The notes under the pieces were generated by a model. The model had not been told where the DNA came from. It worked only from the letters and a program-made list of their open reading frames with translations, and searched no databases. A stretch of 38,335 nt of DNA, from the IMG/VR virus record IMGVR_UViG_3300017998_000006, one strand, 5' to 3'. The translations under genes were made by a program, and so were the position numbers. Shown piece by piece: positions 3,555 through 27,975 of the stretch. This stretch comes from a virus. Numbering within the stretch: the stretch's first letter is position 1; every line of letters starts with the position of its first letter.

Positions 3555-4076
3555 CTAAGCCGTGGCCCACCAGAGTAGCCCCAGCCCCGCCACGGCCAAG
3601 CCAACCCATACCCAGGGGCTTGTGCCCGAATCGCTCGAGAGATCTGGCAGCCCGTCCGTGAGATCCGCCATGATTCTATCCGAGGGTGTCGAATCCACGT
3701 TGATGCTTCCGAGGATGCTGGACGCGTAGGACTGCCCCGCCGCCAGATGTGTAGGCCCGGCATTGTAGGCCGCCAGCGCATCGCTCCAGTTCCCGAACTG
3801 CTGGTACAGCGAAGCCAGCAACGAAACGCCGCCCTCAACGTTCTGGGTGAGATCCGAGGCGTTGACGTTCAGCGCGGTTGCCGTCGCCGGCATGAGCTGG
3901 AAGACGCCAATCTCCCCGGCTGAGCCCACCGCGTTCTGGTTGAAGCTCGACTCCTTTTGCGCTACGGCAACAGCGATTGAAGGCGGTACGCCGAGCTGAT
4001 CCGCTACTGAGGTTATGAGGCTCTGAATGCTTGTGGAAGTCGCCCCGAGTCCCCGCCGCACTGTGCGCCAGTACAT
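3555..4076 (-). CDS. Lytic transglycosylase (SLT domain) with C-terminal membrane anchor
   Basis: AVAQKESSFNQNAVGSAGEIGVFQLMP and ALAAYNAGP = catalytic E-S and AYNAG motifs of family-1 lytic transglycosylases; C-terminal TM WVWVGLAVAGLGLLWWATA; N-terminal leader MYWRTVRRGLG. Confidence 0.85.
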   Translation of the reverse strand: MYWRTVRRGLGATSTSIQSLITSVADQLGVPPSIAVAVAQKESSFNQNAVGSAGEIGVFQLMPATATALNVNASDLTQNVEGGVSLLASLYQQFGNWSDALAAYNAGPTHLAAGQSYASSILGSINVDSTPSDRIMADLTDGLPDLSSDSGTSPWVWVGLAVAGLGLLWWATA

Positions 4077-9072: not shown

Positions 9073-9789
9073 CTACTGAACGCTGCGATCCGTCCAGCCC
9101 TTCATCATCGTCACCAGGGTGATACCCTGGCCACCGTTCGCAGCCGTCTGCCACGCCGGGAGAGTCGCGCCGGGGAACTTGATCTGCAGGCTGAAGTTCT
9201 GCAACGGCGCAATGTACTTCGCAAAGTTGCCGAACGTCCAGACACCGAGCGGAGAAGGCAGGCCGAGGCCCCAGTGGACATCGCCTTGCCGTTCCGAGGA
9301 CCCGTACAGGCCAATGCCCGGCGGATGGAATTCGAGCAGACCTTCGAAGAACACCTTGTCGTCGATTCGGAACTCGAAATACGAGCTGTAGCAGAACTGC
9401 TGGATATCCACCAGCAGCGAATCGATGCTCTGGGCCGTGGGAGCCGTCGACGTGGCCGGCTGGCCCTTGAAATAGAAGCCAAGCTGGTTCAGGATCAGGC
9501 AACGCGGCGCAAGGAACATCCCGCCGTTCGGAAGGTTCGTTTGCAGCTTCGTCTTGATCAGAGCCGTGTTGATCTGATCGTTTTGGTTCAAACCTTGGGC
9601 GAACGGGGTATAGACCGACAGCGCCGAGCTGCCGGCGTTCTGGGTCAGCGTGTCGTAATAGATCCACGCTCCCCGGTCCACCCACCCTTTCATGATGCTG
9701 TTGATATCCATGCCCCTTGCGGACTGGGCATTCGGAGTGTAACCCCCGCCATACGCTACTGTGCCTTGCGGCGCTGATGTTCCGGCCAT
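9073..9789 (-). CDS. Candidate major capsid protein, small beta-rich (single jelly-roll-like?)
   Basis: GGAG 11 nt before ATG; followed by the strongest hairpin in the genome; CLILNQLGFYF / FEFRIDDKVFFEGLLEFHPPGIGLYG / IAPLQNFSLQIKF / ITLVTMMKGW follow the same element order as the 4081..7610 modules; 238 aa is too small for an HK97 fold. Confidence 0.45.
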   Translation of the reverse strand: MAGTSAPQGTVAYGGGYTPNAQSARGMDINSIMKGWVDRGAWIYYDTLTQNAGSSALSVYTPFAQGLNQNDQINTALIKTKLQTNLPNGGMFLAPRCLILNQLGFYFKGQPATSTAPTAQSIDSLLVDIQQFCYSSYFEFRIDDKVFFEGLLEFHPPGIGLYGSSERQGDVHWGLGLPSPLGVWTFGNFAKYIAPLQNFSLQIKFPGATLPAWQTAANGGQGITLVTMMKGWTDRSVQ

Positions 9790-9881: not shown

Positions 9882-10754
9882 CTAGAACGCCCCCATGCCA
9901 TCGCTGCCGGCGGCCACCGCGTTAGCGTTGACCCCGGACGAAGCCATGACCAGCGGGGTCGGCCCCCAGCCATCGGGGATTTCAATTTGCGCCGACTGCA
10001 GGCCATCCACGTACCGCTGTGGAGTCACCCAGTTCGACGCCATGTAGTCCCCGACACCCTGGAGGCTGGCATACTGGCCAAAGGGGGTGTAGTCCGTGAT
10101 CAGCCGGAGCACCACTTGAACCACCGCGCCGGCAAAGATGCCCTTTGCCGCCGCGTCATTCTTCATGATGCCCTTGGCTGCCCACGCCAAAAGTCCGCCG
10201 GCCGCCAGATTGGCGCCGTAGCCCAGAAACCCGGTGTTCTTGGTTCCGAGGACCATCTGCGCGCCCAGTTTCGAGCCGACAGCCCCGGCGATGATGTACA
10301 ACGCCTGGGCGACTTGCCCTCCCCAGGAGCCGCCCATGGGGTTGTGGTGACGGCGGCGCTGATAGCGCCGCGCCGGGTTGTGCCTTGCGTACGACCGGCG
10401 TCTCTTATGACGCCGGCCAGGATCGTTCGTGCGCTTGCGGCCAGGATCATTCGACCTGGACCGGGCGCGATGTGTTCGCGTTTTGGCCATTGCCTGTCTC
10501 CTTGACGCCGGTTTTCTCTTGGGATTCCCCAGCGTTAACAGCACTTGCTCTCCCAGATTGCGTCTCACCGGACGGGGAGAGGTGCGTCTCCGGTGAGCCG
10601 TGTTACGTTTCTGCGCGCGCGCACGATGAGTGCTGCGCTTCGCCTTGACAGCAGCCTGTCGGCGCTTGCCGCCGAAGCCAGCGCGGATCTGCTTCAGGCT
10701 GAACTTGCGCCGAGCCGGGTTGGCGATTGAAACTCGTCTGTGTGCGATAGCCAT
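9882..10754 (-). CDS. Arg-rich basic protein with Gly/Ala-rich hydrophobic C-terminal half (DNA-condensing / internal protein?)
   Basis: The first ~150 aa are dominated by R/K with repeated NP-x-[RK][RK] units (ANPARRK, GNPKRKP, NDPGRKRTNDPGRRHKRRR, HNPARRYQRRRHHNP); then GGQVAQALYIIAGAVGSKLGAQMVLG...LAAGGLLAWAAKGI. Confidence 0.55.
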   Translation of the reverse strand: MAIAHRRVSIANPARRKFSLKQIRAGFGGKRRQAAVKAKRSTHRARAQKRNTAHRRRTSPRPVRRNLGEQVLLTLGNPKRKPASRRQAMAKTRTHRARSRSNDPGRKRTNDPGRRHKRRRSYARHNPARRYQRRRHHNPMGGSWGGQVAQALYIIAGAVGSKLGAQMVLGTKNTGFLGYGANLAAGGLLAWAAKGIMKNDAAAKGIFAGAVVQVVLRLITDYTPFGQYASLQGVGDYMASNWVTPQRYVDGLQSAQIEIPDGWGPTPLVMASSGVNANAVAAGSDGMGAF

Positions 10755-11473: not shown

Positions 11474-12970
11474 TCACGGTGCGCTCACGAGCACCTCGTT
11501 GACCGGGTGACGAACCTCGATATGATCCGGCCCTACCCTGTCCGCAAAATTGTGCGCCCGGCGCCACTCATAGACCTCAGCGCCGTGCTGGTACGCTTCC
11601 GGCGCATTCTGGTAGGCATACGTGCCGTCCCAGGTCCCTTTACCGTAGAGCGGATGTCGGTGTGGGAACATCAAATGCTTGGCGTCTACAATGACGCCAT
11701 CCCGCCGCGCGACATCCGTAAAATCGTTGTCCGCGAACATGCCCCAGTACTCGGGATAGAACAGCCGCCCATAGCGTTCGTAGTACGGTCTCGTGACGAT
11801 GTTGAATGTCATCAGCGAATTGTTGCCACCCGTCGAAATCCAGACCGCAGCCTCAGCGCTCAAATCCGGCAGAACCTTGAGCAGCTCAGTATCCCAGTGG
11901 GGAGGCGGAAACCAGTCGTCCGCTACAGTAATCAAAACCTTACCCGTTGCGACAGCGCCAGCCGCATTGAACGCCGTCACCGCCGTGTGCCGATCATGGT
12001 TGCTGATCTTCTTGAAATGCTCCCACGGCACGCTTGATCGTTGAAGCTCGACCGTCTGCTCCGTGCATAGAATGTACTCACAGTCTTCGGGGTTGTCAGC
12101 CAGGTCGTACCACTCCTGGCAGGCGTTCCGCCAGCCATCGGGGAATCTCAATGTGGCATGGCACAGCGAGAACAGCGGGATTCCAGACCCGAACAACTTC
12201 CGCCGCGGACGCGGCGCGCGAACCATCGGCTCAGCGGCCAGATCCACGGTTTCAAACTGATCAACCGGCTCCGGTATCGGCGCCGTCTTCAAGTGCGGAA
12301 CTTTGACTTGCGGATCGACCAGAATCAACGCCCCGCCCCGTTCCCGAGCGTGGATGCAGAACGCAATATCCTCTCCAGTCATGCCCCACCGCAGGTTCTC
12401 CCCGCAAAATGGCACGAATGGATTGGCCCCTGCTTTCGCCAGCATCCCGTAGCGCATCAGCACCACCGGAAATCCGGTGTAGCCAACCTCCAAGAGCCGA
12501 TTCTCCCTGGCCGCCGTCTTCATCTCCGACGCATCGAAAGGCAGCACGGTGTAATCCGGCCGCAACCTGCCACATGAGACGATGGGGGGCATTCCCTGCC
12601 TCATGTTCGGCTCAGTCCAGCACCAGCCCGCTACCATGTCCGCTTTCGGAAACTCGTCCAGATCCTTTTTCAGCCGCGCGAAATGCTCCGGCAAGACGAT
12701 ATTGTCGTCATCGATCCACAAAACGTAGTCGATGGGTGTTGGAGAATGGAGCATCTCAAGCACCATGCTGGAACGCGTCACGAAGACCGAAGAGGAGTAC
12801 CCGAACAGCGGAGCCGGGTCGTACCCGCTCGACAGCAGCGACATGAACAGGTTGGTCCAGTTCGTCACCCAAGCCGAGGAGAAGGACTCACCCGGCATAC
12901 AGATGCCGATCGATACCCGCCTCGCCGGCGTGCCGTCGTTACCGTTCGTCTTGCCCAAGGTAAGCTCCAT
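11474..12970 (-). CDS. Two-domain glycosyltransferase (GT2-like N-domain + second GT-like domain)
   Basis: N-domain: RVSIGICMPGESF, DxD-type VLWIDDDNIVLP, GEDIAFCIHARERGG..KVPHL. C-domain: LFSLCHATLRFP.., ITVADDWFPPPHWD, ADNDFTDVA. Confidence 0.75.
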   Translation of the reverse strand: MELTLGKTNGNDGTPARRVSIGICMPGESFSSAWVTNWTNLFMSLLSSGYDPAPLFGYSSSVFVTRSSMVLEMLHSPTPIDYVLWIDDDNIVLPEHFARLKKDLDEFPKADMVAGWCWTEPNMRQGMPPIVSCGRLRPDYTVLPFDASEMKTAARENRLLEVGYTGFPVVLMRYGMLAKAGANPFVPFCGENLRWGMTGEDIAFCIHARERGGALILVDPQVKVPHLKTAPIPEPVDQFETVDLAAEPMVRAPRPRRKLFGSGIPLFSLCHATLRFPDGWRNACQEWYDLADNPEDCEYILCTEQTVELQRSSVPWEHFKKISNHDRHTAVTAFNAAGAVATGKVLITVADDWFPPPHWDTELLKVLPDLSAEAAVWISTGGNNSLMTFNIVTRPYYERYGRLFYPEYWGMFADNDFTDVARRDGVIVDAKHLMFPHRHPLYGKGTWDGTYAYQNAPEAYQHGAEVYEWRRAHNFADRVGPDHIEVRHPVNEVLVSAP

Positions 12971-13365
12971 TAGCGCTTTCCCATCTTCCGCTTGCTGTAG
13001 AACCGCTTCTCAGCGCGCCGCTTGAGGATCTTCTTCCGCTGGGCAGCCGAGTAGTTCCGTTTGCCCGCCATCTTCCGCCCGGTGATCTTCACCACCCCAT
13101 TGGGAAGCTTTCGGATGGTCACTGAGGCCATGTTTCGCAAGGTGGTGGAACGACCACGGACCTTGCGCGGATTCGAAATCGCATAGCGTTTGCCACCATC
13201 CACAACAGAGAGCGTTTCGCCAGGCTTCAGATGCGGCCGGCCAATATGAATTTGGCCTTCTCGAATCTTCTGCTCAACGACTTGCTTGGCATCGCTCCCC
13301 TCGTAATCGCGGTAGTATCGAATCGCCGCCGCCTTGCTCACGAAATGACTTGTGCCGTACGTCAT
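12970..13365 (-). CDS. Basic protein carrying the shared NPRKV..STTLRNMASVTI..NGVVKITGRKM module (paralog A) plus a Lys/Arg tail
   Basis: SNPRKVRGRSTTLRNMASVTIRKLPNGVVKITGRKMAGKR then NYSAAQRKKILKRRAEKRFYSKRKMGKR; ATGA-coupled upstream, TAATG-coupled to the glycosyltransferase. Confidence 0.7.
   Translation of the reverse strand: MTYGTSHFVSKAAAIRYYRDYEGSDAKQVVEQKIREGQIHIGRPHLKPGETLSVVDGGKRYAISNPRKVRGRSTTLRNMASVTIRKLPNGVVKITGRKMAGKRNYSAAQRKKILKRRAEKRFYSKRKMGKR
13069..13175. repeat. Dispersed repeat, copy A (coding; pairs with 8136..8242)
   Basis: See 8136..8242; 87/107 identical by hand alignment. Confidence 0.85.
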
Positions 13366-13754
13366 GGCTTCGCCCCCTGCGCGTCCAAGAACCTGTCCAG
13401 CCGGTTGCGCAGCCTTTCGATTTCACCAGAGATATCGTTCAGCTTTACTGGAACCCCCGAGAAATCCCTGATCGCAGTTCGCATCTGGTCCAGTTCTTTC
13501 TCGATCGCCATCAGCCGCAGTTCCCGCACTTCCCACTCCCGAACGTTGCGGTTGATGATCTTTACCGCCGAAAATATGACGGTGAACAGAGAGATGACTT
13601 GAAGCACGACGATGAGCCAGTCCCGAAACTCCAGAACAGAGCCGCCAACCGCGCCGTGGTCTGTGGACTGAGACCAAGCAAGGAAGGGAAGCCACATCAC
13701 AAACGCAAACAGAACCGCTGGAAATCGGAGTTTCGTTATGCACTGCCGCTGCAT
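13362..13754 (-). CDS. Membrane protein with coiled-coil C-terminal half
   Basis: TM segments FPAVLFAFVMWLPFLAW and WLIVVLQVISLFTVIFSAV, then REWEVRELRLMAIEKELDQMRTAIRD..IERLRNRLDRF. Confidence 0.65.
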   Translation of the reverse strand: MQRQCITKLRFPAVLFAFVMWLPFLAWSQSTDHGAVGGSVLEFRDWLIVVLQVISLFTVIFSAVKIINRNVREWEVRELRLMAIEKELDQMRTAIRDFSGVPVKLNDISGEIERLRNRLDRFLDAQGAKP

Positions 13755-15286
13755 CAGTTTCGTATCCCTTCCGGTTCGACCGAGTACTCACCGCCAGCAA
13801 AAGCCAGCGCTTGGTTCATCACGTCGTACAGTAGCCGAGGTTTCGGCGCGCGCCTTTCACCAAAGCCGTAGGACATGCGCGTCTTGCCCTCTTCGGAGAG
13901 CTTGTGGTGGTAGGATGCTTCCCCGCCCTGGTCTCCCAAGTGGTCTTTGGCCGTGAAGTACCAGAGCTTCACCACTTCCCCCAGGTCCTCAATGTCGTGA
14001 TACGGCTTCCCTATTCCAAACGCTGAGAGTTTCACCGCCTGGTCCCCGCCTTCGATGTAGAGCTGCGTTCCGCGCTCATTCGAGCACAGCACCGCGTCTC
14101 CGAACCGTTCCAAGTCCACCAGACCCCCGTCGTTCGCGCGCACAGTCAGCTTCTCCAGCTCGCCCAGGGCGGCCAGGTGCGCGTGGTAGTGAACTGGCTT
14201 TTCGACTTCCACCAGCTCACCGGACGGCCGACCGTGGAACTTCTGGTACATCGAGGCCGCCGCGTCTGCGGGGTTCCGTGTCGCCTTCTTCTTGAGCTTC
14301 ACACCCAGCTTCATGAACTCCTGGCCCAGTATGGCAGCCATGGTAGGGTCCACGTTCTTCCGCCGCCCTTTCGCGGCCGCTCGCTGCAATTCCGCCGCGC
14401 CTTCTGGGGTACGCCTTTTGGAGGCCGCGCACACTGCGTTAGGATCGTCCACATCGCCGCGCCTTGATACAGCCGCAACACACCGCGCGAAAGAACTCTG
14501 ACCCGGGTTCAAAGTCTTCTGGACAAGCTCGTCGCGCCGTTCCAAAAGCCTTTTCATCTTTTTAGCATCCGTAGTTCCCAGAATCTCTCGGTTGATGGAG
14601 TCAACCTCAGCTCCGAGCCTCGAATGCGGACCCCTGTTTTTGCGATTCCACGATGTGATGAAGCCTTTCACGTCCTTTTCCGAGTCAAACAGCGAATCAC
14701 CACCACCCAAGGATGTACGCCAGCCCGCCTCGTCCGACCCGTACACCCGGTATCCTTTATAGGTCTGCGAGATCTCGCGCGCCGCAGTATGTGCGGGAGC
14801 ATACCGCGACGCGCTGCGGGCGCTGGCGGGCATGGTTTGACGCGGAGACGTGGCTTTCGAGGAGAAAGGCCAGAGGTTACGGCGGGAAGACTTCAAATCC
14901 GCAATCCGCCGCGCGTACTCGATTCGTTTCGACCTCGGGGTGGCATGGATCATCGCGCCAGCTTCCCCGTGCTCGCCTGAGTGCTGCTGTTGCGAGACAG
15001 CCCAAGCGTACTGCGCAAAAGTCGGTACCCCGCCTTTCGCCGGGTTGTACTGATTCGTCGGAACTCCGGCGCCTATCCGCTTGAATGCCACCGCCAGCTT
15101 CCCGTTACAGGACCGGCACCCATAGGCGAGGTTCTGAAGCTCTCCGTTTGCTTCGTTCCCGTCCAAATGCATAACCCCCAACTGACGACGAGAGCCGCAC
15201 AGAACGCAGCGGCGCTCACCTCGTACCGTGTTCTGAGCGCGATAGCGTTTCGCCCGATCGGTTAGGTTGGCACGCTGAGCCATCAT
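13754..15286 (-). CDS. 510-aa protein with N-terminal HNH-type zinc-finger nuclease motif fused to a large unknown domain
   Basis: Start MMAQRANL at 15286 is ATGA-coupled to 15283..15579; RRCVLCGSRRQLGVMHLDGNEANGELQNLAYGCRSCN fits C-x2-C..H-x-D/N..N..C-x2-C HNH; the remainder has no motif I recognise. Confidence 0.6.
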   Translation of the reverse strand: MMAQRANLTDRAKRYRAQNTVRGERRCVLCGSRRQLGVMHLDGNEANGELQNLAYGCRSCNGKLAVAFKRIGAGVPTNQYNPAKGGVPTFAQYAWAVSQQQHSGEHGEAGAMIHATPRSKRIEYARRIADLKSSRRNLWPFSSKATSPRQTMPASARSASRYAPAHTAAREISQTYKGYRVYGSDEAGWRTSLGGGDSLFDSEKDVKGFITSWNRKNRGPHSRLGAEVDSINREILGTTDAKKMKRLLERRDELVQKTLNPGQSSFARCVAAVSRRGDVDDPNAVCAASKRRTPEGAAELQRAAAKGRRKNVDPTMAAILGQEFMKLGVKLKKKATRNPADAAASMYQKFHGRPSGELVEVEKPVHYHAHLAALGELEKLTVRANDGGLVDLERFGDAVLCSNERGTQLYIEGGDQAVKLSAFGIGKPYHDIEDLGEVVKLWYFTAKDHLGDQGGEASYHHKLSEEGKTRMSYGFGERRAPKPRLLYDVMNQALAFAGGEYSVEPEGIRN

Positions 15287-15579
15287 ATTACGGCCTTTTG
15301 AAGCTTCCGACTGCGCCGCCGGCGCCGAATGCCTTTGGCAACGGTCTGTGTGCCTCGCTTCGTGGTGAAGAACACCGAGAACGCGATGTACAACACACCA
15401 GCCACCGTGGCCCATTCCCCAATGCCCCACTGCGAAAAGTCGAGGCCAGAGTCGAAGAGCCCCATCCCACCGCACCCGCACATGCCAGGACAGCCCAGCC
15501 CTACCTGTCTGTCCCAGGCCGCTTGACCATTCGGCGGGAAACTCGGAACCTGACCACACGGGACGGACTGAATAAACAT
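15283..15579 (-). CDS. Cys-rich C-terminally anchored membrane protein with poly-Arg tail
   Basis: GAGGAGA before ATG 15579 (MFIQSVPCGQ..); GLGCPGMCGCGGMGLF; TM WATVAGVLYIAFSVFF then KGIRRRRRSRKLQKAVI. Confidence 0.6.
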   Translation of the reverse strand: MFIQSVPCGQVPSFPPNGQAAWDRQVGLGCPGMCGCGGMGLFDSGLDFSQWGIGEWATVAGVLYIAFSVFFTTKRGTQTVAKGIRRRRRSRKLQKAVI

Positions 15580-15581
15580 CG

Positions 15582-15884
15582 CTATCTCCTCGCCCCCATC
15601 ATGGCCATCAAAAGAAGGCCCGCAACCACCGCTCCACAGGTGTAGAGAATCCAGTCGCACACGGCAATCGGAGAGGTTATGATCGTGCTCGAACAACCCG
15701 TATCCACGGGTAAGTTTGAAGCCGAATCCCCTGCACTCGTACCAACAGGCAACTGTCCGGTAGGAGCGCCCCAGCATACAAGGTCCACTATGCTGGACCA
15801 CGCGTCACAATCAACGATGGTGCCCGAACTATTGATGCGATAGTCCGCACCAAGCCCTCGCCGAGATGTATGCCGCATCAACAT
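15582..15884 (-). CDS. Cys-containing C-terminally anchored membrane protein with RRGLG leader
   Basis: MLMRHTSRRGLGADY...; 5 Cys; C-terminus DWILYTCGAVVAGLLLMAMMGARR (the longest ORF starts at TTG 15896). Confidence 0.6.
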   Translation of the reverse strand: MLMRHTSRRGLGADYRINSSGTIVDCDAWSSIVDLVCWGAPTGQLPVGTSAGDSASNLPVDTGCSSTIITSPIAVCDWILYTCGAVVAGLLLMAMMGARR

Positions 15885-15983
15885 TCGAGTTTCCAAACAA
15901 ACTGCAAAACCAGCCGGTAGAGCAGGAACATCACCATGCCCCTGCCCTCAACAGCACTACCCTTGCCGCCATCCCGCCCGCCC

Positions 15984-16256
15984 TTATTGCGGCTGAATGG
16001 ACAGGTTCACTTCCTGGTACGCCCCGCCCTTCGCATCGCGGCTTAGATGCCCGCTCGCGGACACCGCTACCGCCTTCAGCGGATCGAACGTGCCCAGACA
16101 CTGATCGATGACGGCGGCAATCTGCTTCACCGTCTCGCGTTCCCCGTCATTCTCCAACCCGGCGGGCGCATCGGCCAAAGGAATCGAGAAAGCCTTCGCA
16201 AGTTTCAGCTTCGCGTCGGCGTTATTTTTCGCAACTACCGTTACACTCCACGACAC
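15984..16256 (-). CDS. Hypothetical 90-aa soluble protein
   Basis: GAGGAG 9 nt before GTG start; MSWSVTVVAKNNADAKLKLAKAF...; overlaps the RHH-like gene by 16 nt. Confidence 0.6.
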   Translation of the reverse strand: MSWSVTVVAKNNADAKLKLAKAFSIPLADAPAGLENDGERETVKQIAAVIDQCLGTFDPLKAVAVSASGHLSRDAKGGAYQEVNLSIQPQ

Positions 16257-16477
16257 GACCTTTTTCTCCTCTTCGTTTTCTGCAAAATCCCAAAATGCCG
16301 GGCCGCATCGACTACGGTTAGTTCCGCAGGAATGCCGCTATCTTCCAAAGCCTTCACCAGCACGTCACGCAGGCCCCCATTCCACACCGCCTCACCGCCC
16401 TTGATTCGCTTCGCCGCCTGATCGCAGAGAGCAAGGACCCCTTGCGGGATCGTCAGGCGAATCCGAGTAATCGGCAT
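16241..16477 (-). CDS. Possible ribbon-helix-helix DNA-binding protein
   Basis: MPITRIRLTIPQGVLALCDQAAKRI (beta-strand then helix, Arc/CopG-like) ..RDVLVKALEDSG; basic tail KTKRRKRS; the start is an internal ATG of ORF 16241..16564. Confidence 0.4.
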   Translation of the reverse strand: MPITRIRLTIPQGVLALCDQAAKRIKGGEAVWNGGLRDVLVKALEDSGIPAELTVVDAARHFGILQKTKRRKRSCRGV

Positions 16478-16488
16478 AGGCTGAGCAC

Positions 16489-16773
16489 TCACCGGCGCCG
16501 CCTCCCACCGCTCAGCATTGCCAGCGCGAAAATGCCCACACCGGCCACGATAGCGACCGTCCACAACGAAAAGCAGAAGCTGCTCCCGCTGGACAAATCA
16601 ATGCAGTAATCGCTCCCTGAACTCGTGCTCGCCGAATTCACTGCAGCACACGGATCGTTTCCAAAAGCATCGGGACAAGACGCAAAGCCCATCCCTCTCA
16701 ATGGCCTCGGTCTCAGTTGGACAGGTTGTATCCAGGCCGGCGTTACCGGTACCGCCGTAAACCTCGTTACCAT
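16489..16773 (-). CDS. Cys-containing C-terminally anchored membrane protein with LRGMG leader
   Basis: MVTRFTAVPVTPAWIQPVQLRPRPLRGMGFASCPDAFGNDPC...; C-terminus LWTVAIVAGVGIFALAMLSGGRRRR. The start is uncertain: the longest ORF to 16968 overlaps the upstream gene by 100 nt. Confidence 0.55.
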   Translation of the reverse strand: MVTRFTAVPVTPAWIQPVQLRPRPLRGMGFASCPDAFGNDPCAAVNSASTSSGSDYCIDLSSGSSFCFSLWTVAIVAGVGIFALAMLSGGRRRR

Positions 16774-16868
16774 CGGGTGTGCCCACCACGGGCCCCGCGA
16801 AGGGTCAACAATCAGTCCCGCGTCGTTGATGCAAGGCGGCTGCCCGGTTTGAGCACAGGGCGGATAGC

Positions 16869-17312
16869 TCACGCGAACCTCCGGCGCTGATAGAATCTGC
16901 CCATGCCGCGGTAGAGGCCCAGCCCGCTCATTCCTTGGGTCACCAGGTACGGCTCCATCAGAGACCAATACTGAGCCGCCGTCATGGTAGCCGTGCGCGG
17001 ATTCGCATCGGTAAATGTGAAAACCGATTCCGGGGCAGGAGGAGTCACCGAGGATACCGACTTGAGGTACACGTTCCAGCCATCCGCCGTCAACAAAGCA
17101 TTCGCCGGAGCCGCCGCGACCATCCGGCTATAGATCGCCGCCAGCGAATTAAAGGCGGGCGTCGTAGTCGTGGGCGTCGTGGTGGCCGGTGTCGTGGTGG
17201 CGGGAGTCGTAGTGGCGGGAGTCGTAGTGGCCACAGCCGGCGTCGCAAAGTACGTCTCGTACACCCAGTACGCCCCAACCCCAATCGCCAGCCACTTGAT
17301 AATGTCTTTCAT
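16869..17312 (-). CDS. N-terminally anchored protein with (T3-4 P A)x5 linker
   Basis: ATGA-coupled start MKDIIKWLAIGVGAYWVY (TM); ATTTPATTTPATTTPATTTPTTTTPA; C-terminus GLGLYRGMGRFYQRRRFA. Confidence 0.65.
   Translation of the reverse strand: MKDIIKWLAIGVGAYWVYETYFATPAVATTTPATTTPATTTPATTTPTTTTPAFNSLAAIYSRMVAAAPANALLTADGWNVYLKSVSSVTPPAPESVFTFTDANPRTATMTAAQYWSLMEPYLVTQGMSGLGLYRGMGRFYQRRRFA
17157..17231. repeat. 5 x 15-nt tandem coding repeat (Thr-Thr-Thr-Pro-Ala units)
   Basis: gggcgtcgtagtcgt / gggcgtcgtggtggc / cggtgtcgtggtggc / gggagtcgtagtggc / gggagtcgtagtggc on the plus strand; the last two units are identical. Confidence 0.9.
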
Positions 17313-18301
17313 CGTTTGCCTCCAGAGGAGAATGCAAAAAGCGAAATGGCACACGCCGCCGCAACCAGCGCCCAGTTCGGAACACCGGCAATCATTTCAT
17401 TGGTGAACCAGTTGGCCGTCGTAGCCGTCGTGGTAGCCGGCGTCGTGGTCGAACCCGTCGTGGTCGAAATGGGCGTGGTCGAAACGGGTGTGGTCGAAAC
17501 GGGCGTAGTAACCGAAGTTGCGGGTGCGGCCTGAACCGTAAAGCTAAACGAGCTTATTCCGATCCCGTTTACCGTCCAGCCCTCGTACCAAGAGCCAATC
17601 GCGGAACTGTCTATGGTGCCCGACAAAGAGAAGTTGCCCCAGTTGTCCGTGGTGCCAGTCGGGGTGGTGTTCATCGCGCCATTCTTCCCGCCCACTACAG
17701 CAATTGGCGCATTTGGCGTGGCGCCGCTGATGCTGATCGTCCAGGTATCGCCCGGATAAAGGACGTTTCCGCCTCGACTCGTTACAAAACTCAGACTCCC
17801 ATGCCCCGGCACTGGAGTAATGGGACCGGCTACGACAATAGAAGGATTCGCAATGGAACTGGACCCAGTCTGAACCACAGGAACGATAGACGCCAAAATG
17901 CTCGAAGGTACCCTGCCACCGTACTGCTGCTGGATATCCGAAATTTGTTGCGCCCGTTTGGTGTTCCGCTGACTGCAAGCGAATTGTGCGGCAACATCGG
18001 GCCCCGGACACAACTCCCACCCAACCGCTGTCTGCAAGTCTGAGTAGGATGCCCATGACGTGTTCATCGCCGCAGAAACAGAAGCAGTGTCTACAGACGG
18101 GTTCGTGCCTTGAGCCGGAGTCGGAACGACCCCTGATTGCATCCCTTGTTGCAGCCAGTAGTCATAATTCGACACGGAATCCGAATACGGGCCACTCGGG
18201 CAATTTGTAGGCGTGCAGGTATCGCCCAGCCCGGCGCGACGCCGCCTCGACGGAACGACGTTCACTCGCACCGCCATCGGAAGCCGCTGTCGAATAATCA
18301 T
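17309..18301 (-). CDS. C-terminally anchored protein: RRRRAGLG leader, Cys-containing domain, beta-sandwich-like domain, Thr/Pro linker
   Basis: ATGA-coupled start MIIRQRLPMAVRVNVVPSRRRRAGLGDTC; ..LYPGDTWTISISGATPNAPIAVVGG..; TTPVSTTPVSTTPISTTTGSTTTPATTTATT; C-terminus WALVAAACAISLFAFSSGGKR. Confidence 0.65.
   Translation of the reverse strand: MIIRQRLPMAVRVNVVPSRRRRAGLGDTCTPTNCPSGPYSDSVSNYDYWLQQGMQSGVVPTPAQGTNPSVDTASVSAAMNTSWASYSDLQTAVGWELCPGPDVAAQFACSQRNTKRAQQISDIQQQYGGRVPSSILASIVPVVQTGSSSIANPSIVVAGPITPVPGHGSLSFVTSRGGNVLYPGDTWTISISGATPNAPIAVVGGKNGAMNTTPTGTTDNWGNFSLSGTIDSSAIGSWYEGWTVNGIGISSFSFTVQAAPATSVTTPVSTTPVSTTPISTTTGSTTTPATTTATTANWFTNEMIAGVPNWALVAAACAISLFAFSSGGKR
17445..17504. repeat. 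4 x 15-nt tandem coding repeat (Thr-Thr-Pro-Val/Ile-Ser units)
   Basis: gtggtcgaacccgtc / gtggtcgaaatgggc / gtggtcgaaacgggt / gtggtcgaaacgggc, with degenerate units on both sides. Confidence 0.85.
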
Positions 18302-19041
18302 GACATCACCGCCACGAGTGCCAAGGCCGCCGCCAGCAAAACCCAAGACGGAAGGCTCGACAGCTCGCTCAATGCGGAATTTGCCGCCCCTGTCACAAGT
18401 GAAGACACCGAATCTGGCACCACATTGGGGTCCTGGCTTATGGGGTCGCGATAAGCATTGAACCAGTTCCAGCACTGGCCCGCCGCCGGCCCGCCTGGCC
18501 AGGGAGAATCCGCCGTAGCCTTCCAGGTACACGCCCCAGACTGCCGATCCGAGATGCACCGCTTACCGGCGTTCCCCGTGGATGGGTTGCCGCACATGTT
18601 CACCAGCGTGGCCCAGATCGCATCGAAGTTTGCCAACGCCGTTTTCTGTTGGCTTTCAGTCCGCGGAGCCGCCACGCTGAAGTAGGTTGAGATGTTCTGC
18701 CGAAGCAGCGGTTCCGCCTGATTTGCCCACCCGGAAGTTTCGATGCACGTCTGTCCACACCCGGAGTTTTTGATAAGATCTGCTGCCAGCAGCGTAATCC
18801 CCACAATCGCCGCGCCAACAATCGGAATGGCGACGGCCGTAGAGACTCCAAGTATGCCAGCGGCCGTGGCCCCCGTTGCGGCCGCTACAGCCGGCGCCGC
18901 TGCCGATCCGAAGGCCTGGGTGTACTGTGCATCCGTGGCCGCCGTGCCCATCCCGCGACTCCGGTGTCTCGATTGCACAGCCCGGCCAAAGCCTTGCACC
19001 GGCGAGACGAACGCGCGCGAATGGGTCCGAATGTACATCAT
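18298..19041 (-). CDS. Two-TM, Cys-rich membrane protein with SRGMG leader
   Basis: MMYIRTHSRAFVSPVQGFGRAVQSRHRSRGMGTAATD; TM ILGVSTAVAIPIVGAAIVGITLLAADLI; 8 Cys in the middle domain (GCGQTC, MCGNPS, KRCISDRQSGAC, GQCWNW); C-terminal TM WVLLAAALALVAVMS. Confidence 0.65.
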   Translation of the reverse strand: MMYIRTHSRAFVSPVQGFGRAVQSRHRSRGMGTAATDAQYTQAFGSAAAPAVAAATGATAAGILGVSTAVAIPIVGAAIVGITLLAADLIKNSGCGQTCIETSGWANQAEPLLRQNISTYFSVAAPRTESQQKTALANFDAIWATLVNMCGNPSTGNAGKRCISDRQSGACTWKATADSPWPGGPAAGQCWNWFNAYRDPISQDPNVVPDSVSSLVTGAANSALSELSSLPSWVLLAAALALVAVMS

Positions 19042-20162
19042 TTCTTTGCGATCAACAAAACAGCACCCAGGGCAGCCACCAGCACCAGGATTGTGCCCGT
19101 GCTCAAACCGCCAATGCCAGAAGACGAAAGCAGGGAACTCGCCGCCGTGCTGCTGGATGGCGTGATAATCGTCGTCCCGCTCGCCGTCTTATACGTGGTA
19201 GTGGGCGCGATGACGCGGCTAGCAATCGTCGTCCACGAGTTCAGTAGTGTGTTCAGCTCGTTCTGAAAGCTGGATCCGCCGGTGGTCGACAATCCCCCGC
19301 TCGATGATTCGGCAACTGGGCATTGAGCGGAACCCAGAACGCAGCTCGTGCCATCCGAGAACTCAACGATACTGTCGCCTCCGGCCGTTACCGTAGGGTC
19401 TGGAATCGTTACGCAGTTGGCCCCGTCCTCATCGCACTGGTAGGTATCCCCCAATCCGCGCATCCCACGCCGCCGGCGCATAAGCCGTGTCCGCGGTACA
19501 GCGCCCATGCCCGACCATCCCCGGCCGCGGATGTATCCCGCCATCCTCTTTATAGGGCGCTCACGCTCCACCGGCTGCCCGTCCTGGTCCCATGCCTGGT
19601 AGCGGAGGATGTGATCTGCCGGGACTTCCCACCCCGGATACTTCGCATCCGGCGGCATCGCGTCCATAACGAATCGCCGGCCGTCCTCAAGCGTGGCTAC
19701 CGCGTAGACGTGCGACCAGCGCTGCGCATCCCCCGGATCGGCCGCCACCGTGACGATCTCCCACGGCACGCCCAAGCACTCGAGGAAGCAGCACACGAGC
19801 ATTGTGAAATCGTCGCAGTCGCCTTGCGGACTCCTGGCGCGCACCATGACCGAGGGCGACACCAGCAGTTCAAGCTCCGGCGGGTTGGGCGTGGGGATGT
19901 GCTGTAGCAGTGAATCGTCGGAAACAAACTTCAGGGTATGGCGGATCGACCACCAGATGGCCCAGCACGCAGCGTAGGCCCCGGCCCGCCCTTGCGAATA
20001 CTTCAGGAGCGCATTGCGCGCGGCCGCTTGCACCACAGGGTCTTGCGCACACTGGCGGATCTGCTGTGCCATGAGCGCAACTGTTTGCGCGGTCGAGTGG
20101 TCCTGATTGTTTAGGTCCGCCTGGTAGCGCTCGACCATGATCGGAAGGGTAGAGGTGGCCAT
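19038..20162 (-). CDS. Transglutaminase-like cysteine-protease domain protein with S/T-rich C-terminal half and C-terminal TM anchor
   Basis: QGDC(116)DDF, 35 aa, WSH(151)VY, 16 aa, VMD(167)A = Cys-His-Asp spacing of transglutaminase-like/papain-type fold; LMRRRRGMRGLGDTYQC at ~aa 228-243; C-terminus GTILVLVAALGAVLLIAKK. Confidence 0.55.
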   Translation of the reverse strand: MATSTLPIMVERYQADLNNQDHSTAQTVALMAQQIRQCAQDPVVQAAARNALLKYSQGRAGAYAACWAIWWSIRHTLKFVSDDSLLQHIPTPNPPELELLVSPSVMVRARSPQGDCDDFTMLVCCFLECLGVPWEIVTVAADPGDAQRWSHVYAVATLEDGRRFVMDAMPPDAKYPGWEVPADHILRYQAWDQDGQPVERERPIKRMAGYIRGRGWSGMGAVPRTRLMRRRRGMRGLGDTYQCDEDGANCVTIPDPTVTAGGDSIVEFSDGTSCVLGSAQCPVAESSSGGLSTTGGSSFQNELNTLLNSWTTIASRVIAPTTTYKTASGTTIITPSSSTAASSLLSSSGIGGLSTGTILVLVAALGAVLLIAKK

Positions 20163-20171
20163 TCAGCCAAG

Positions 20172-20201
20172 AGAGTACCACCAATCCCAAAGCCTTGTAA
20201 A
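20172..20201 (-). promoter_or_regulatory. Candidate leftward promoter of the late block (TTTACA-18-TACTCT), near-leaderless
   Basis: Minus strand reads TTTACA (20201..20196), an 18-nt spacer, TACTCT (20177..20172), then 9 nt to ATG 20162; no SD in between. Confidence 0.4.
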
Positions 20202-20300
20202 CCATTCGCCTTAAAGTAGTTTACACTAAGGGCGGTGCCGCACAGGTGCCGTATTGATGCCCTCCAGTGCCAGAAAAAGTGCTAAAATGAGGCTGAAACT

Positions 20301-21866
20301 ATGGCAAAAACCAAGCCGCAAAGACCCAAAACCAGCCGAGTAGCTGAATTCCCGGCGCCTTCGAGTGACCCTGGAGCCGCAGACACCGCCGTCGCAGCCG
20401 AAGAACTGCCCGAACCGCAGCCACCGCCGAAAGCTGCGCAGAAGTCCGGCCAGTCCAAGCAAAAAGAACGGGACTTCGGCCCAGACCCGCTGCCAAAGAT
20501 CCAGGAATTTTTTGAACGATGCTCTGGTATCCGCCAACAGGACTGGCAAGCACGCGCCAAGGTCAAAGTCTACCGCTTAAAGCCGATCTACGATATGCTG
20601 ATCGGCTCGAAACGCAAGTACATTCGCATCTACGAGCTTGGCGCACCAACCGAGGAGCAGATCAAGCACGACTGCGGCAGCGGCCGCTACCGGCTCTACC
20701 TCAACTTCAAAACAGACGGAGCCGACCACGAAAAAGAACTCGCCTCCGTCGAGATCGATATTCTCGATCCGGCGTTCCCGCCTAACCTACCAGTAGGTGA
20801 TTGGCTGAACGATGAGGCAAACAGAGAGTGGAGGTGGGCGAGGCCCCTGCTCGAAGCACGCGAAGCGGAGGCAGCCGCCAAAGTCGCAAATAAAAACGAA
20901 CGCGCGGCGGCCAGCAGCTCTGGAAACATGCTCGAAGCCGTCCAGGTCCTCGGCGAACTCCAGGACCGCGCCGAGGAACGCGCGCGCGAACGAATCGACA
21001 GCGGACGGCCCCAAACTTGGGACCCTGCTCAGCAGCTTGCCACCGTGGTAACCGCAGCAAAGGACATCGCCGGCGCGCTCAAAGCCACCCCAGAAAATCC
21101 CATCCCAGCTTTCATATCCGAGCAAATGACCGCGATGCGCACCGAGCTTGCGGACGCGCGGCGGCGCAGTGATACGCTCATGGACAAGCTGTTGGATATG
21201 GCCCGAGCCCCGCAGCCCCAGCAGCAGAACGGCCTAAGCGCCGTCAAGGAAATCATGCAGGGCATCAAAGACTTCCTGCCCACCGTCCGGGATCTTTGGC
21301 CGAATGCGCCCGAGGATATCGCAGAGCGCGTGGTCAAATCGAAGATGGGACCGTGGCAGGAATTCTTCGCCCCGGTGCTTCCCAGACTCGTTGACGCGCT
21401 CGCTCCGATCATGCCTGCGATGGCAGCCGGTTTGATGGGAGGCAACGGACCAGCAAGACCGCCAGGAATGCCACCGCAAGCCCGTCTGCCCAACCCAGCC
21501 ATGCCCCAACCCAGCCCCCAGTCCCCGCCGCAAGCGCAGCACGCTCCAAACCTCGACGAAATGCTTTTGAACGCTCTGACCAGTGACCGCGACGGCGGAG
21601 AATTCGCGGACTCGCTCGTCATGCTCTTCGGCCAGCAAGGACAACTGATGTACCGCCAGGCCGCTTCACTCGGAGAGCAGGGCTTGCTTACGTTGATTCA
21701 GCAACGGCCCGTCTGGAACCAACTTGGACCGCTGCAATCCAAGGTGCCAGCCTTCGTTCATGAGTTCATCGAATGGGGCCAGGAGCCACAGGAAGAGATG
21801 GCGGAAGGCGCAGAACCGCCCGCCGCCGGTGAGGTGGTGGACCTCACGGGAGAAGCCACACAATGA
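20301..21866 (+). CDS. 521-aa early protein, unknown function (coiled-coil, Pro/Gln-rich), VVDLTGE tail
   Basis: GAGG 11 nt before ATG; first gene of the rightward block; C-terminus AAGEVVDLTGEATQ*; no NTPase or polymerase motif seen. Confidence 0.7.
   Translation: MAKTKPQRPKTSRVAEFPAPSSDPGAADTAVAAEELPEPQPPPKAAQKSGQSKQKERDFGPDPLPKIQEFFERCSGIRQQDWQARAKVKVYRLKPIYDMLIGSKRKYIRIYELGAPTEEQIKHDCGSGRYRLYLNFKTDGADHEKELASVEIDILDPAFPPNLPVGDWLNDEANREWRWARPLLEAREAEAAAKVANKNERAAASSSGNMLEAVQVLGELQDRAEERARERIDSGRPQTWDPAQQLATVVTAAKDIAGALKATPENPIPAFISEQMTAMRTELADARRRSDTLMDKLLDMARAPQPQQQNGLSAVKEIMQGIKDFLPTVRDLWPNAPEDIAERVVKSKMGPWQEFFAPVLPRLVDALAPIMPAMAAGLMGGNGPARPPGMPPQARLPNPAMPQPSPQSPPQAQHAPNLDEMLLNALTSDRDGGEFADSLVMLFGQQGQLMYRQAASLGEQGLLTLIQQRPVWNQLGPLQSKVPAFVHEFIEWGQEPQEEMAEGAEPPAAGEVVDLTGEATQ
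21834..21854 (+). repeat. 21-nt gene-end element, copy 1 (gtggtggacctcacgggagaa)
   Basis: Encodes VVDLTGE and contains GGAG 8-10 nt before the next ATG. Confidence 0.85.
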
Positions 21867-22330
21867 CACCTGTATACCAAATGGCCCCAGTCGCGGGGCG
21901 TTCGCCAATTTGGGCCACCGCAGAAGAATTTCGCGCCGTTCTAGAGCGTAAGAAAACGGCGATTCAAAAGCTCTGCACAGCGGCATGTGAATACTTGACA
22001 CTCGAAATCGACGCGGCTTTAGAAGGCTTTGAACACGCTCAGGTAGTTGGCCCGCCAACGCGCGCAACCGTGAAACCCGAAGATCTGATCGAAGCACAGC
22101 AGCGCTGCGAAGTGATCCAATCCCGAATAGAGGAGTTGCAAGAGGCGATTGACAGGTCGCCCATTCCGGAAATGGCCGTACTGCTCAAAACCGTCATGAT
22201 TCCAACCATTCAAACGGAATTAGAGCAGGCAACAGCATACCGAGACCACCTGCAACGTGGTCTTGAACAACAAACAGAACCGCCGAGCAGGGATGATAAA
22301 GTGGTGGACCTTACAGGAGAACCAGTATGA
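21863..22330 (+). CDS. Early protein, unknown function, VVDLTGE tail
   Basis: ATGA-coupled; helical/acidic; C-terminus SRDDKVVDLTGEPV*. Confidence 0.7.
   Translation: MTPVYQMAPVAGRSPIWATAEEFRAVLERKKTAIQKLCTAACEYLTLEIDAALEGFEHAQVVGPPTRATVKPEDLIEAQQRCEVIQSRIEELQEAIDRSPIPEMAVLLKTVMIPTIQTELEQATAYRDHLQRGLEQQTEPPSRDDKVVDLTGEPV
22301..22321 (+). repeat. 21-nt gene-end element, copy 2 (gtggtggaccttacaggagaa)
   Basis: 19/21 identical to copy 1; preceded by gataaa as in copy 3. Confidence 0.85.
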
Positions 22331-22605
22331 GCATTTCCGTTACAGAGGCATCGGAGCTTCGCCAAGCTGCGACGGAACGCCTGAATCAGCCCGCTATTGC
22401 GCTTCTGAAGGCACAGCTTGAGCAAGCCCGCAAATTACAATCGGCAACGTACGGACTACTCAGCCTAACTTTGCGCGACTGTGATAAGGTAGACCTCGAA
22501 TACGAACGGCTGCGATGCGCCGTAATCGAAGCACAAAGGCAGGAACAGGCAGAACGGGCCGCCACGAATGATAAAGTGGTGGACCTCACAGGAGAATCGG
22601 CATGA
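22327..22605 (+). CDS. Early protein, unknown function, VVDLTGE tail
   Basis: ATGA-coupled; C-terminus ATNDKVVDLTGESA*. Confidence 0.7.
   Translation: MSISVTEASELRQAATERLNQPAIALLKAQLEQARKLQSATYGLLSLTLRDCDKVDLEYERLRCAVIEAQRQEQAERAATNDKVVDLTGESA
22576..22596 (+). repeat. 21-nt gene-end element, copy 3 (gtggtggacctcacaggagaa)
   Basis: 20/21 identical to copies 1 and 2. Confidence 0.85.
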
Positions 22606-23613: not shown

Positions 23614-24243
23614 ATGTACAGCCAAAACAACGAAGAGGAAATTATCCGCGACCTCTTCAAAGATGAGGTTGGAACATTCCTGGACATCGGCGCCTGTGAC
23701 GGGAAGCTGAACAGCAACACTCTGACCCTCGTAGAACGCGGATGGTCAGGCGTGCTGGTCGAACCGAGTCCCGGAGCGTTCCAGGCACTCTACAAAAGGC
23801 ACGGTAAGAATCCCAAACTGCAACTCGTGAATGCCGCCATCGGCACGCATTCGCACCTCGCGCAATTCTGGGACTCATGGGAAACGGCGCCCGGCTACGG
23901 TACGACCGAACCATTGAACCGTGAACGCTGGACAGGATTGGTCGGAGTATGGCAGCGTTTTCTAATCCCAGTATTCCCGTTCACAGAACTGCTCGAAAAC
24001 TGGCGTCAGCAGCCGTTCGATTTCGTCAGCATCGACACCGAAGGCACCAGCTCTCAACTGTTCCAGATCCTTTTGGCGTCGTATGAGAAACCACGGGTGA
24101 TCTGCGTAGAGCATGACGGATGGCTCCAGAACTGTATCGAGGCAGCCGCACCCCACGGATACCGGGAAGTGGCATGGAACGCGGAAAATCTGATACTGAC
24201 CACCATCGGCCCCACCAGCACCGTCCAGATGTTGTCAAAATAG
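23614..24243 (+). CDS. SAM-dependent methyltransferase, FkbM family-like
   Basis: GTFLDIGACDGKLNSNT (motif I hD-h-GA-x-x-G) and GVLVEPSPGAFQALYKRHGKNPKLQLVNAAIG match the Methyltransf_21/FkbM pattern. Confidence 0.7.
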   Translation: MYSQNNEEEIIRDLFKDEVGTFLDIGACDGKLNSNTLTLVERGWSGVLVEPSPGAFQALYKRHGKNPKLQLVNAAIGTHSHLAQFWDSWETAPGYGTTEPLNRERWTGLVGVWQRFLIPVFPFTELLENWRQQPFDFVSIDTEGTSSQLFQILLASYEKPRVICVEHDGWLQNCIEAAAPHGYREVAWNAENLILTTIGPTSTVQMLSK

Positions 24244-27921: not shown

Positions 27922-27927
27922 GACCCC

Positions 27928-27957: not shown

Positions 27958-27975
27958 TATTCGTGCAGAATTCTC

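Follow-up and report, generated by a model that had tools for sequence, protein, structure and literature searches.

A membrane-anchored transglutaminase-like protein and a shared G-[LM]-G motif may form a virion maturation system in an uncultured virus lineage

The stretch of DNA analyzed here (the window) is the 38,335-base virus record IMGVR_UViG_3300017998_000006 of IMG/VR, with a G+C content of 58%. Minus-strand genes run from 20162 down to 677, and a divergent plus-strand block begins at 20301. The first gene of the minus-strand operon (19038-20162) encodes a protein with a transglutaminase-like domain, and genes for membrane-anchored proteins sharing a short motif follow directly downstream. 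The initial annotation of this DNA had recognized the motif as RG[LM]G and proposed that the first gene's product is a protease that removes the leaders of these proteins, and cuts itself, at this site. The seven motif sequences quoted there all lie where it placed them on the minus strand. Every carrier that it listed is real; it had omitted two carriers, 15283-15579 and 9882-10754, and a second site in the linker of the first gene's product. The features concerned are given below, with a slash directly after the motif.

19038..20162, minus strand: candidate enzyme of 374 residues, first gene of the operon, with the catalytic-like domain in residues 1-200
19662..19817, minus strand: codons of the putative catalytic triad, Cys116 (19815-19817), His151 (19710-19712), and Asp167 (19662-19664)
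19449..19460, minus strand: internal site RRRRGMRGLG/DTY (residues 228-241), with R235-G236-L237-G238 before D239, between the catalytic domain and the anchored C-terminal half
19503..19511, minus strand: second linker site G218-M219-G220 (GWSGMG/AVP), 18 residues upstream of the first
18298..19041, minus strand: carrier of 247 residues with a 32-residue basic leader, ...HRSRGMG/TAA (18946-19041)
17309..18301, minus strand: carrier of 330 residues with a 26-residue leader, ...SRRRRAGLG/DTC (18224-18301)
16869..17312, minus strand: mirror-image carrier of 147 residues, with GLGLYRGMG/RFYQRRRFA at its C-terminus (RGMG at 16899-16910)
16489..16773, minus strand: carrier of 94 residues with a 29-residue leader, ...RPRPLRGMG/FAS (16687-16773)
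15582..15884, minus strand: carrier of 100 residues with a 12-residue leader, MLMRHTSRRGLG/ADY (15849-15884)
15283..15579, minus strand: added carrier of 98 residues with a Cys/Gly-rich leader, ...GCGGMG/LFDSGLDFSQWGIGEW (GMG at 15460-15468)
9882..10754, minus strand: added carrier of 290 residues, very basic, with a conserved LQGVG/DYM (10050-10058)
3555..4076, minus strand: carrier, SLT lytic transglycosylase (Pfam SLT, E 4.7e-23), with the leader MYWRTVRRGLG/ATS (4044-4076) and a C-terminal membrane helix

The gene starts, and hence the leaders, are credible because of ATGA stop/start overlaps (18298-19041, 17309-18301, and 16869-17312) and tight spacing (the SLT gene and 15283-15579); AGGAG stands upstream of the ATG of the last. 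Membrane helices and basic tails were assessed by hydropathy, which agreed with the earlier claim that most carriers end in a hydrophobic helix plus a basic tail, except that the hydrophobic segment of 16869-17312 is N-terminal instead. In 18298-19041, after the leader, a conserved 6-Cys domain lies between an internal membrane helix and one at the C-terminus; the profile of this protein matched nothing among PDB sequences. The leader of 17309-18301 precedes a beta-rich body that contains Cys; a Thr/Pro linker comes next, and the end is made up of VPNW, a membrane helix, and GGKR. The shorter carriers have a 4-Cys body, a membrane helix, and GGRRRR (16489-16773); a 5-Cys body, a membrane helix, and GARR (15582-15884); or, after GCGGMG/LFDS, a membrane helix and a long basic tail (15283-15579). 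The mirror-image carrier begins with a hydrophobic anchor, continues through a Thr/Pro linker and body, and ends in the motif and a basic nonapeptide. In 9882-10754, an N-terminal half of about 140 extremely Arg/Lys-rich residues precedes a hydrophobic segment and a conserved C-terminal part. This protein is likely a protamine-like, genome-condensing or core protein and a further substrate candidate. The motif thus stands at module boundaries: before the body in most carriers, after the body in 16869-17312, and at the basic/hydrophobic junction of the core protein in relatives.

In the 54 predicted proteins of the window, RG[LM]G was observed 6 times against an expectation of 0.42, and none of 5,000 within-protein shuffles reached 6. 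Within the first 35 residues, 4 occurrences were observed against 0.07 expected (0/5,000 shuffles reached 4). The frequency was therefore far above the shuffled expectation that the initial annotation had named as a check. Its rough estimate of about one occurrence by chance was slightly generous to chance, as composition gave 0.48. The motif was defined after being seen, so that the p-values for the window are optimistic, and reliance was placed on independent related genomes.

Nine relatives were fetched, with first-gene products 77% to about 31% identical to that of the window, or found only via the capsid candidate described below; the fetched region of one of them, L013, stops short of the operon head. 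Five distant loci, each tested by itself, were all enriched in G[LM]G, at N-termini as well as overall. Conservation in relatives was likewise found, since G-x-G keeps its alignment column in orthologues from the nine further genomes down to about 30% identity while leader lengths range from 7 to 36 residues. The orthologues of 18298-19041 by themselves span this range of lengths; in 10 of them, with identities as low as 31%, G30 and G32 do not vary. The motif of 17309-18301 aligned in the L001, L002, and L010 orthologues, and the L001 orthologue of 16489-16773 is 60% identical. Orthologues of 16869-17312 in L001, L002, L008, and L010 keep the C-terminal G-x-G and basic tail, and in L009 the site is internal. 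For 15283-15579, the orthologues (L001, L009, L006, and L012) have G-x-G followed by LF.(S/G)G.D.S.WG..EW. Even distant SLT orthologues retain a leader (L012, MFVATLPHYGLG/QSVS; L013, ...EVVRGIG/ATTP). In the basic protein 9882-10754, G[LMV]GDY aligned in L001, L003, L009, and L010 and was present in L011, L012, and L013 too; a second site, RRxNPG[LM]G, lies at the basic/hydrophobic junction in relatives.

The leaders are linked to membrane anchoring. Across ten genomes (the window and the nine relatives), an N-terminal G[LMV]G leader was found in 36/65 proteins with a C-terminal helix versus 19/228 others (odds ratio 13.7, Fisher p 4e-15), a cross-genome statistic that includes orthologues and hence non-independent observations. 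A logo of 95 sites had G at P3 and P1 and L (61) or M (34) at P2. R (24), S (14), and A (12) led at P4, with P5-P8 rich in R; D (29), A (16), and Q (10) led at P1', and P2' was often aromatic or small. In L012, Gln directly follows the motif at 7/12 sites, that of the enzyme itself included, versus 3/83 in the other genomes (p 7e-6). Such a genome-wide shift at P1' points to a single co-evolving reader of the motif.

Several further features of the carriers were observed. Leader starts tend to M-[YLIFM]-x-R (MYWRT, MLMRH, MMYIRT, and MIIRQ in the window; MYARR, MYRRN, MYQRS, MYTRAP, MYMRTH, and MIVKRR in relatives), and the leader N-terminus may also be recognized. Directly before the terminal helix, many carriers have [G/V]-[IVL]-P-x-W (VPNWALV, LPSWVLL, IPTWAWL, IPGWVWV, and VPDWVWY), among them 17309-18301 and 18298-19041 of the window, 12576-13841 of L002, 9612-10226 and 11530-12015 of L003, and 517-1389 of L013. 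This signature has the format of an exosortase-type sorting signal, without a match to curated models. None of the NCBIfam C-terminal sorting domains searched in the carriers (PEP-CTERM, IPTL-CTERM, MYXO-CTERM, GlyGly-CTERM, and the like) scored above cut-off; the best carrier score was 11.8 bits for MYXO-CTERM in the SLT protein (cut-off, 20), and PEP-CTERM reached 13.9 in P0092, a homologue of the first-gene product (cut-off, 20.7). Sec, Tat, and lipoprotein signal peptides were rejected as explanations of the leaders, which have no hydrophobic stretch, and the motif also occurs internally and C-terminally. A Tat signal was also rejected for the RR leaders because no hydrophobic core comes next in most carriers.

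The first-gene product itself consists of the N-terminal domain, a disordered basic linker at about 205-265, and a Ser/Thr-rich C-terminal half ending in a membrane helix and KK. It has no hydrophobic N-terminal segment, and its sole terminal helix by hydropathy spans 353-371. The AlphaFold2 (AF2) model, built with the family alignment, had a predicted local distance difference test score (pLDDT) above 90 for the greater part of residues 20-200, falling below 50 in 214-265. The N-terminal domain was confidently modelled with a transglutaminase-like Cys-His-Asp cysteine-protease fold. In a Foldseek search of the PDB, the top matches were the transglutaminase-like putative cysteine proteases 3kd4 (E 1.7e-5) and 3isr (E 6.4e-4), followed by transglutaminases (TG2 and FXIII), PNGase/Rad4, arylamine N-acetyltransferases, TgpA, and the pseudomurein endoisopeptidase PeiW.

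At the level of sequence profiles, the window protein alone scored 15.2 bits against Pfam PF01841 (Transglut_core; E 0.026), below the curated cut-off of 23 bits. The same model matched 15 of 32 aligned homologues at E<0.01, and P0083, P0084, P0087, and P0092 scored 26.5-50.1 bits, above the cut-off, so that membership of the window protein is transitive. PF06035 (BTLCP/LapG) matched 4 of the 32 homologues, all below its cut-off of 27 bits (best P0075, 25.9 bits, E 9.4e-6; P0068, 21.2 bits), and did not match the window protein. A search of PDB sequences with the enzyme profile gave only a weak TG2 active-site match (E 0.15), and one with P0075 gave nothing useful.

The proposed triad of Cys116, His151, and Asp167 is in Cys-His-Asp order with family-typical spacing, in the contexts GDCDDF, WSHVY, and VMDA. 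When 228 homologues were aligned with hmmalign, Asp115, Cys116, and His151 were each present in 228/228 and Asp167 in 226/228. Both the fold and the near-invariance of these residues bear out the earlier reading of this domain. The linker site, which had been placed between the N-terminal domain and the anchored half, indeed falls in the disordered linker of the model. In the 213 homologues covering this position, G236 was kept in 210/213 and G238 in 211/213; L, M, V, F, or I occupied position 237, and D (86), Q (80), or A (24) most often occupied position 239. The surrounding linker is hypervariable, yet G-x-G is kept, and the site is thus conserved like an active-site residue. In a representative set, 88/90 scorable full-length sequences had the site, RRGMA-D being the clear exception, and 90/90 had the terminal helix. 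Two to four tandem sites were present in 32/88 linkers. Redundant protease sites are often tandem.

A profile search of 1.84 billion cluster representatives returned 3,813 relatives, 554 of them at E<=1e-30, and the full-length architecture was kept among the matches listed. The enzyme gene and motif carriers occur together in every relative whose fetched region covers the operon head. Wherever the operon start was fetched, the enzyme gene came first and carriers directly next. A promoter and terminator scan of 13500-20500 gave background levels.

From these sequence patterns, we propose, with a confidence that goes about halfway, that 19038-20162 encodes a maturation protease, tethered to the membrane, for which G[LM]G is the cutting site both in its own chain and in the neighbouring proteins. 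The motif, usually with Arg before it and Asp, Ala, or Gln after it, would be both the recognition and the cleavage site, with hydrolysis presumably at the bond directly after the second Gly. The N-terminal Cys116-His151-Asp167 domain would be the protease, made tethered by its own C-terminal helix, which would hold it in the same plane and topology as substrates anchored C-terminally. Its substrates would be the anchored membrane proteins of the virion whose genes lie directly downstream, along with the SLT entry enzyme and the core protein rich in basic residues. At assembly, the short and mostly basic leaders would be trimmed from N-termini, 16869-17312 would lose its C-terminal basic nonapeptide, and the modules of the core-like protein 9882-10754 would be separated. 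A self-cut in the linker would free the catalytic domain and leave the C-terminal half in the membrane as a structural protein, making 19038-20162 a two-product polyprotein. As the carriers have no signal peptide, their bodies should be cytoplasmic, or capsid-facing in a particle with an internal membrane, with the basic tails toward the DNA; the protease domain would lie on the same side as the bodies. No other protease-like protein was detected in the genome in Pfam and PHROG scans, which covered 38 of the predicted proteins and 17 of the larger and structural ones, respectively.

Several points weigh against this proposal, besides the orthologues within the cross-genome counts. Most proteins of the genome have no recognizable fold, so that another protease could be among them. 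Arg is at P4 in only 24/95 sites, and specificity would come mostly from G-[LM]-G. Some leaders in relatives are only 1-6 residues long and non-basic (MGLG/TT, MHPNGLG/Y, and MSYEAIGLG/A), and their removal seems pointless unless a defined new N-terminus matters. No catalytic-dead homologue was found among the 228, which leaves no natural case of enzyme loss for comparison. Viral transglutaminase-fold enzymes can be cell-wall peptidases instead, and PeiP of phage psiM2 was a weak structural match (E 0.02). Finally, several bodies contain 4-6 Cys residues, often an even number, which hints at an oxidizing extracytoplasmic site; such a location fits poorly with a protease domain in the cytoplasm and with the lack of signal peptides.

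The strongest alternative, though an unlikely one, had been raised by the initial annotation too: the motif may be a docking or sorting signal that is bound and not cut. It could recruit the anchored proteins and the enzyme to an assembly site, the inner face of the capsid, or a scaffold, and the transglutaminase-like domain might be the receptor or have an unrelated role. Conservation, tandem copies in disordered linkers, and a genome-specific flank suit a binding motif equally well, and that G-L-G persists in very short, non-basic leaders suggests that what counts is the motif and not leader removal. However, the retention of the triad (Cys and His in all 228 homologues, Asp in all but two) argues for catalysis. 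The sites also lie at module junctions, whether N-terminal, internal, or C-terminal, with a dispensable basic peptide on either side, as is typical of propeptide junctions.

It is rather less probable that the sites are cut by another protease, from the host or an unrecognized viral one, and that the transglutaminase-like domain is a virion wall endopeptidase for entry or exit, made as an anchored precursor like the SLT protein. The weaker structural matches include PeiP and PeiW, which archaeal viruses have as wall enzymes of the transglutaminase fold; the SLT entry enzyme shows the same order of leader, body, and anchor; and the many unannotatable viral proteins leave room for a second protease. 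Against this, the genome already encodes an SLT and a SleB-type hydrolase, and the best structural and profile matches of the domain are putative proteases and the LapG-type family, not wall hydrolases. A host protease would also leave the virus-genome-specific shift at P1' unexplained unless the hosts differ.

Quite improbable is a transpeptidase or transglutaminase that forms a thioester at G[LM]G and transfers the acyl group to a protein or lipid amine, linking virion components in a sortase-like manner. Acyl transfer is common among members of this fold (TG2, FXIII, and TgpA are among the matches), and the mirror-image carrier, whose body precedes the site, would suit the role of acyl donor. 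From the N-terminal leaders, however, only the short leader would be transferred, which makes little sense, and there was no match to a known family of C-terminal sorting domains. Since Gln is not conserved after the motif, classical Gln-Lys cross-linking was rejected. Chance, or an artefact of composition in Gly/Arg-rich, GC-rich coding sequence, is excluded: the motif was defined post hoc and G, R, and L are common residues, but none of the 5,000 shuffles reached the observed count, five other genomes were enriched, and the column was invariant across the 228 homologues.

The proposed protease can be compared with several known systems. Adenain (MEROPS C5) is a cysteine protease that trims adenovirus virion precursors, including membrane-active and basic genome-condensing proteins. 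It cuts at (M/I/L)XGG/X or (M/I/L)XGX/G (slash at the cut) and belongs to the Ulp1-like clan CE, with His-Glu/Asp-Cys order. A short basic C-terminal peptide, pVIc (GVQSLKRRRCF), is freed from one of its substrates, and the adenovirus capsid is of the jelly-roll type. The window would be alike in having a viral cysteine protease, several precursors with a Gly-containing consensus, membrane and basic core substrates, a basic C-terminal peptide (RFYQRRRFA after RGMG), and a candidate jelly-roll capsid. In contrast, the enzyme here has a transglutaminase-like fold with Cys-His-Asp order, is membrane-anchored with its own site, and shows no sequence relationship to adenain; its sites are [R]-G-[LM]-G, with R, S, or A and not a hydrophobic residue at P4 in the 95-site logo. 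The adenovirus G-x-G parallel drawn by the initial annotation therefore stands as an analogy of logic, and not in the site pattern or enzyme fold.

By profile, LapG/BTLCP (PF06035, C93) is the nearest named peptidase family, below the 27-bit cut-off. It shares the transglutaminase-like Cys-His-Asp arrangement, and LapG's activity, site-specific removal of an N-terminal module at small residues, resembles that proposed here. LapG has a signal peptide, is soluble in the periplasm, and acts on a single adhesin, LapA, at the di-alanine of TAAG; the window protein lacks a signal peptide and has instead a C-terminal anchor, many proposed substrates, and a G[LM]G site. The C39 or double-glycine systems also combine short leaders ending in small residues with a papain-like cysteine peptidase encoded beside its substrates. 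Their leaders, which are acidic or amphipathic, terminate in GG, GA, or GS, and the peptidase is fused to an ABC transporter and acts on exported peptides; here, there is no ATPase or transporter, and the carriers are anchored virion proteins. The prohead maturation proteases of tailed phages and herpesviruses (HK97 gp4, T4 gp21, and assemblin) likewise take propeptides off several virion proteins at assembly, but these are serine proteases of another fold in viruses with HK97-fold capsids. With two tailless viruses that have an internal membrane, PRD1, which has the anchored transglycosylase P7, and SPV1 (Sulfolobus polyhedral virus 1), the window virus shares an SLT protein with a C-terminal helix, many small membrane proteins, and a jelly-roll capsid candidate; with SPV1, it also shares a candidate nucleoprotein and the lack of a recognizable packaging ATPase. 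It differs in having no sequence similarity to cultured phages and only a weak structural match of the capsid candidate (E 0.011). To our knowledge, no proteolytic maturation system has been described for PRD1/SPV1-type viruses.

The other genes point to an unfamiliar virus. The window is essentially a full genome of a virus-like type: an identical first-gene product was found on contigs of up to 38,637 bases, and relatives cluster at 33-47 kb. Besides the SLT gene, the only nameable genes, and the capsid candidate, are as follows.

677-1078: SleB-type wall hydrolase
9073..9789, minus strand: candidate jelly-roll major capsid protein, 238 residues long, with 260 homologues, the most conserved protein of the genome
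11474-12970: family-2 glycosyltransferase
23614-24243: FkbM methyltransferase
27898-28338: DUF968 protein
29940-30998: NUMOD3 homing endonuclease

PHROG matches among the 17 scanned proteins were limited to the SLT protein, the glycosyltransferase, weak HNH matches, and the homing endonuclease. Pfam scans of the 38 proteins found no portal, terminase, HK97 capsid, double jelly-roll capsid, packaging ATPase, or second protease, and no scanned protein matched the prohead-protease families S77, S78, U9, and U35 in Pfam or PHROGs. By the same two collections, no FtsK/HerA-type packaging enzyme, terminase, or portal was found, and a six-frame search for Walker A (P-loop ATPase) motifs found none inside a credible gene. 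A DNA-packaging motor thus seems to be lacking from the genome. No polymerase or primase was detected in the window. The window DNA at 15000-21000 had no match in 50,697 deposited phage genomes, nor did the enzyme (19038-20162) or the capsid candidate (9073-9789) by tblastn against these records.

The capsid candidate was modelled with a pLDDT of 75. Foldseek against the PDB gave weak matches only, mostly to jelly-roll capsid proteins (SGIV, PBCV-1, SPV1, and P23-77 VP17; best E 0.011), and these four are membrane-containing viruses. Its C-terminus reads G[WL]TDR[SA]VQ, and the N-terminal extension ahead of DINSIM varies from 2 to 27 residues across relatives. The window virus is probably a novel jelly-roll virus with a membrane in its particle. 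The group appears to be an uncultured, tailless, bacterial, and very widespread one, with 554 enzyme clusters (50% identity, E<=1e-30) and genome sizes near 33-47 kb. Binning placed related contigs with a Sulfotelmatobacter (Acidobacteriota) genome and with a Phycisphaerales genome from palsa, which is weak evidence as a pointer to the host. Literature searches found neither the virus group nor a G[LM]G leader described, and no transglutaminase-like maturation protease reported for prokaryotic viruses. In one paper, BTLCP genes of tailed river phages are treated as auxiliary genes, which is a separate matter.

Other observations on the genome concern proteins outside the proposed system. On the plus strand, three consecutive proteins (20301-21866, 21863-22330, and 22327-22605) have a common C-terminal peptide (...GEVVDLTGEATQ, ...DDKVVDLTGEPV, and ...NDKVVDLTGESA), which may be a docking tail for one partner; its L001 counterpart is ...DDKVVDLTGEASQ, and none was found in the fetched parts of more distant loci. 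Five consecutive beta-rich proteins whose fold was not recognized are encoded at 4081-7610 on the minus strand. Of these, 6669-7610 and 6175-6672 end in G[VL]KR[RY]... and 5216-6178 in the looser GVKVLP; the endings are kept in L003, L011, L012, and L013, and the proteins may be paralogous capsid or vertex proteins. The otherwise different basic proteins 8121-8597 and 12970-13365 (minus strand) contain a near-identical 35-residue segment, G[KR]STTLRNMASVTI[TR]KLPNGVVKITGRKM.GKR, which by its sequence is a duplicated module. In 13754-15283 (minus strand), an HNH-like zinc-finger N-terminus is fused to a domain with the C-terminus ...LLYDVMNQALAFAGGEYSVEPEGIRN; the latter is a shorter stand-alone protein in all relatives, and the HNH part looks like a genome-specific insertion or fusion.

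Apparent Sec signal peptides (...MALAQTPPA, ...LFAQAPV, and ...AAYGQAPD) occur in 134-670, 33602-34690, 34703-35605, and 35574-36734 on the plus strand. They stand directly at the start except in 33602-34690, where an N-terminal extension of about 70 residues comes first, suggesting that the true start is probably an internal Met. Such signals would be unusual for virion proteins assembled in the cytoplasm, and these proteins may be host-surface modifiers or morons. The adjacent proteins 25421-26572 and 26584-26979 (minus strand) have a common motif, DR[DE]I.YLE.S.MA.V[RK]H, which is probably a winged-helix module for replication or regulation. Small proteins of a multi-copy family, with the C-termini ...AGGN(A/S/E), ...AGGDK, or ...AGGK, were found in a distant relative, L013 (136-516, 2434-2802, 14633-15103, 15369-15632, 16445-16750, 18276-18596, and 19075-19368), and at 4571-4858 in L012. 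Several start with M-[IC]-[CY]-L-R-R; they are interspersed with structural genes and absent from the window.

Proteolytic maturation at consensus sites is used by tailed phages and herpesviruses, adenoviruses, large DNA viruses, and many RNA viruses. We know of no case in prokaryotic tailless or membrane-containing viruses. Judged from the sequences, a viral protease with consensus sites in this new-looking lineage is plausible. More tentatively, and with doubt prevailing, the lineage as a whole may combine a membrane-containing jelly-roll particle, no packaging ATPase, a protamine-condensed genome, and an enzyme of the transglutaminase fold acting at G[LM]G, by cleavage or transpeptidation, on itself and on no fewer than eight membrane and core proteins, as an independently evolved counterpart of the adenovirus type in a prokaryotic virus. 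If the maturation reading is true, it would add a new pairing of protease and substrates whose code, G-[LM]-G, is simple and testable, and would represent convergence with adenovirus maturation on another enzyme fold. A docking signal that is not cut would likewise be new, as an assembly code common to at least eight proteins. For a protease, the combination of leader and anchor would predict virion membrane components and serve as an annotation handle for a huge, so far unannotatable group of viruses from soil and peat. A packaging motor is used by nearly all double-stranded DNA phages known, and the system would provide the first functional foothold in a lineage apparently without one.

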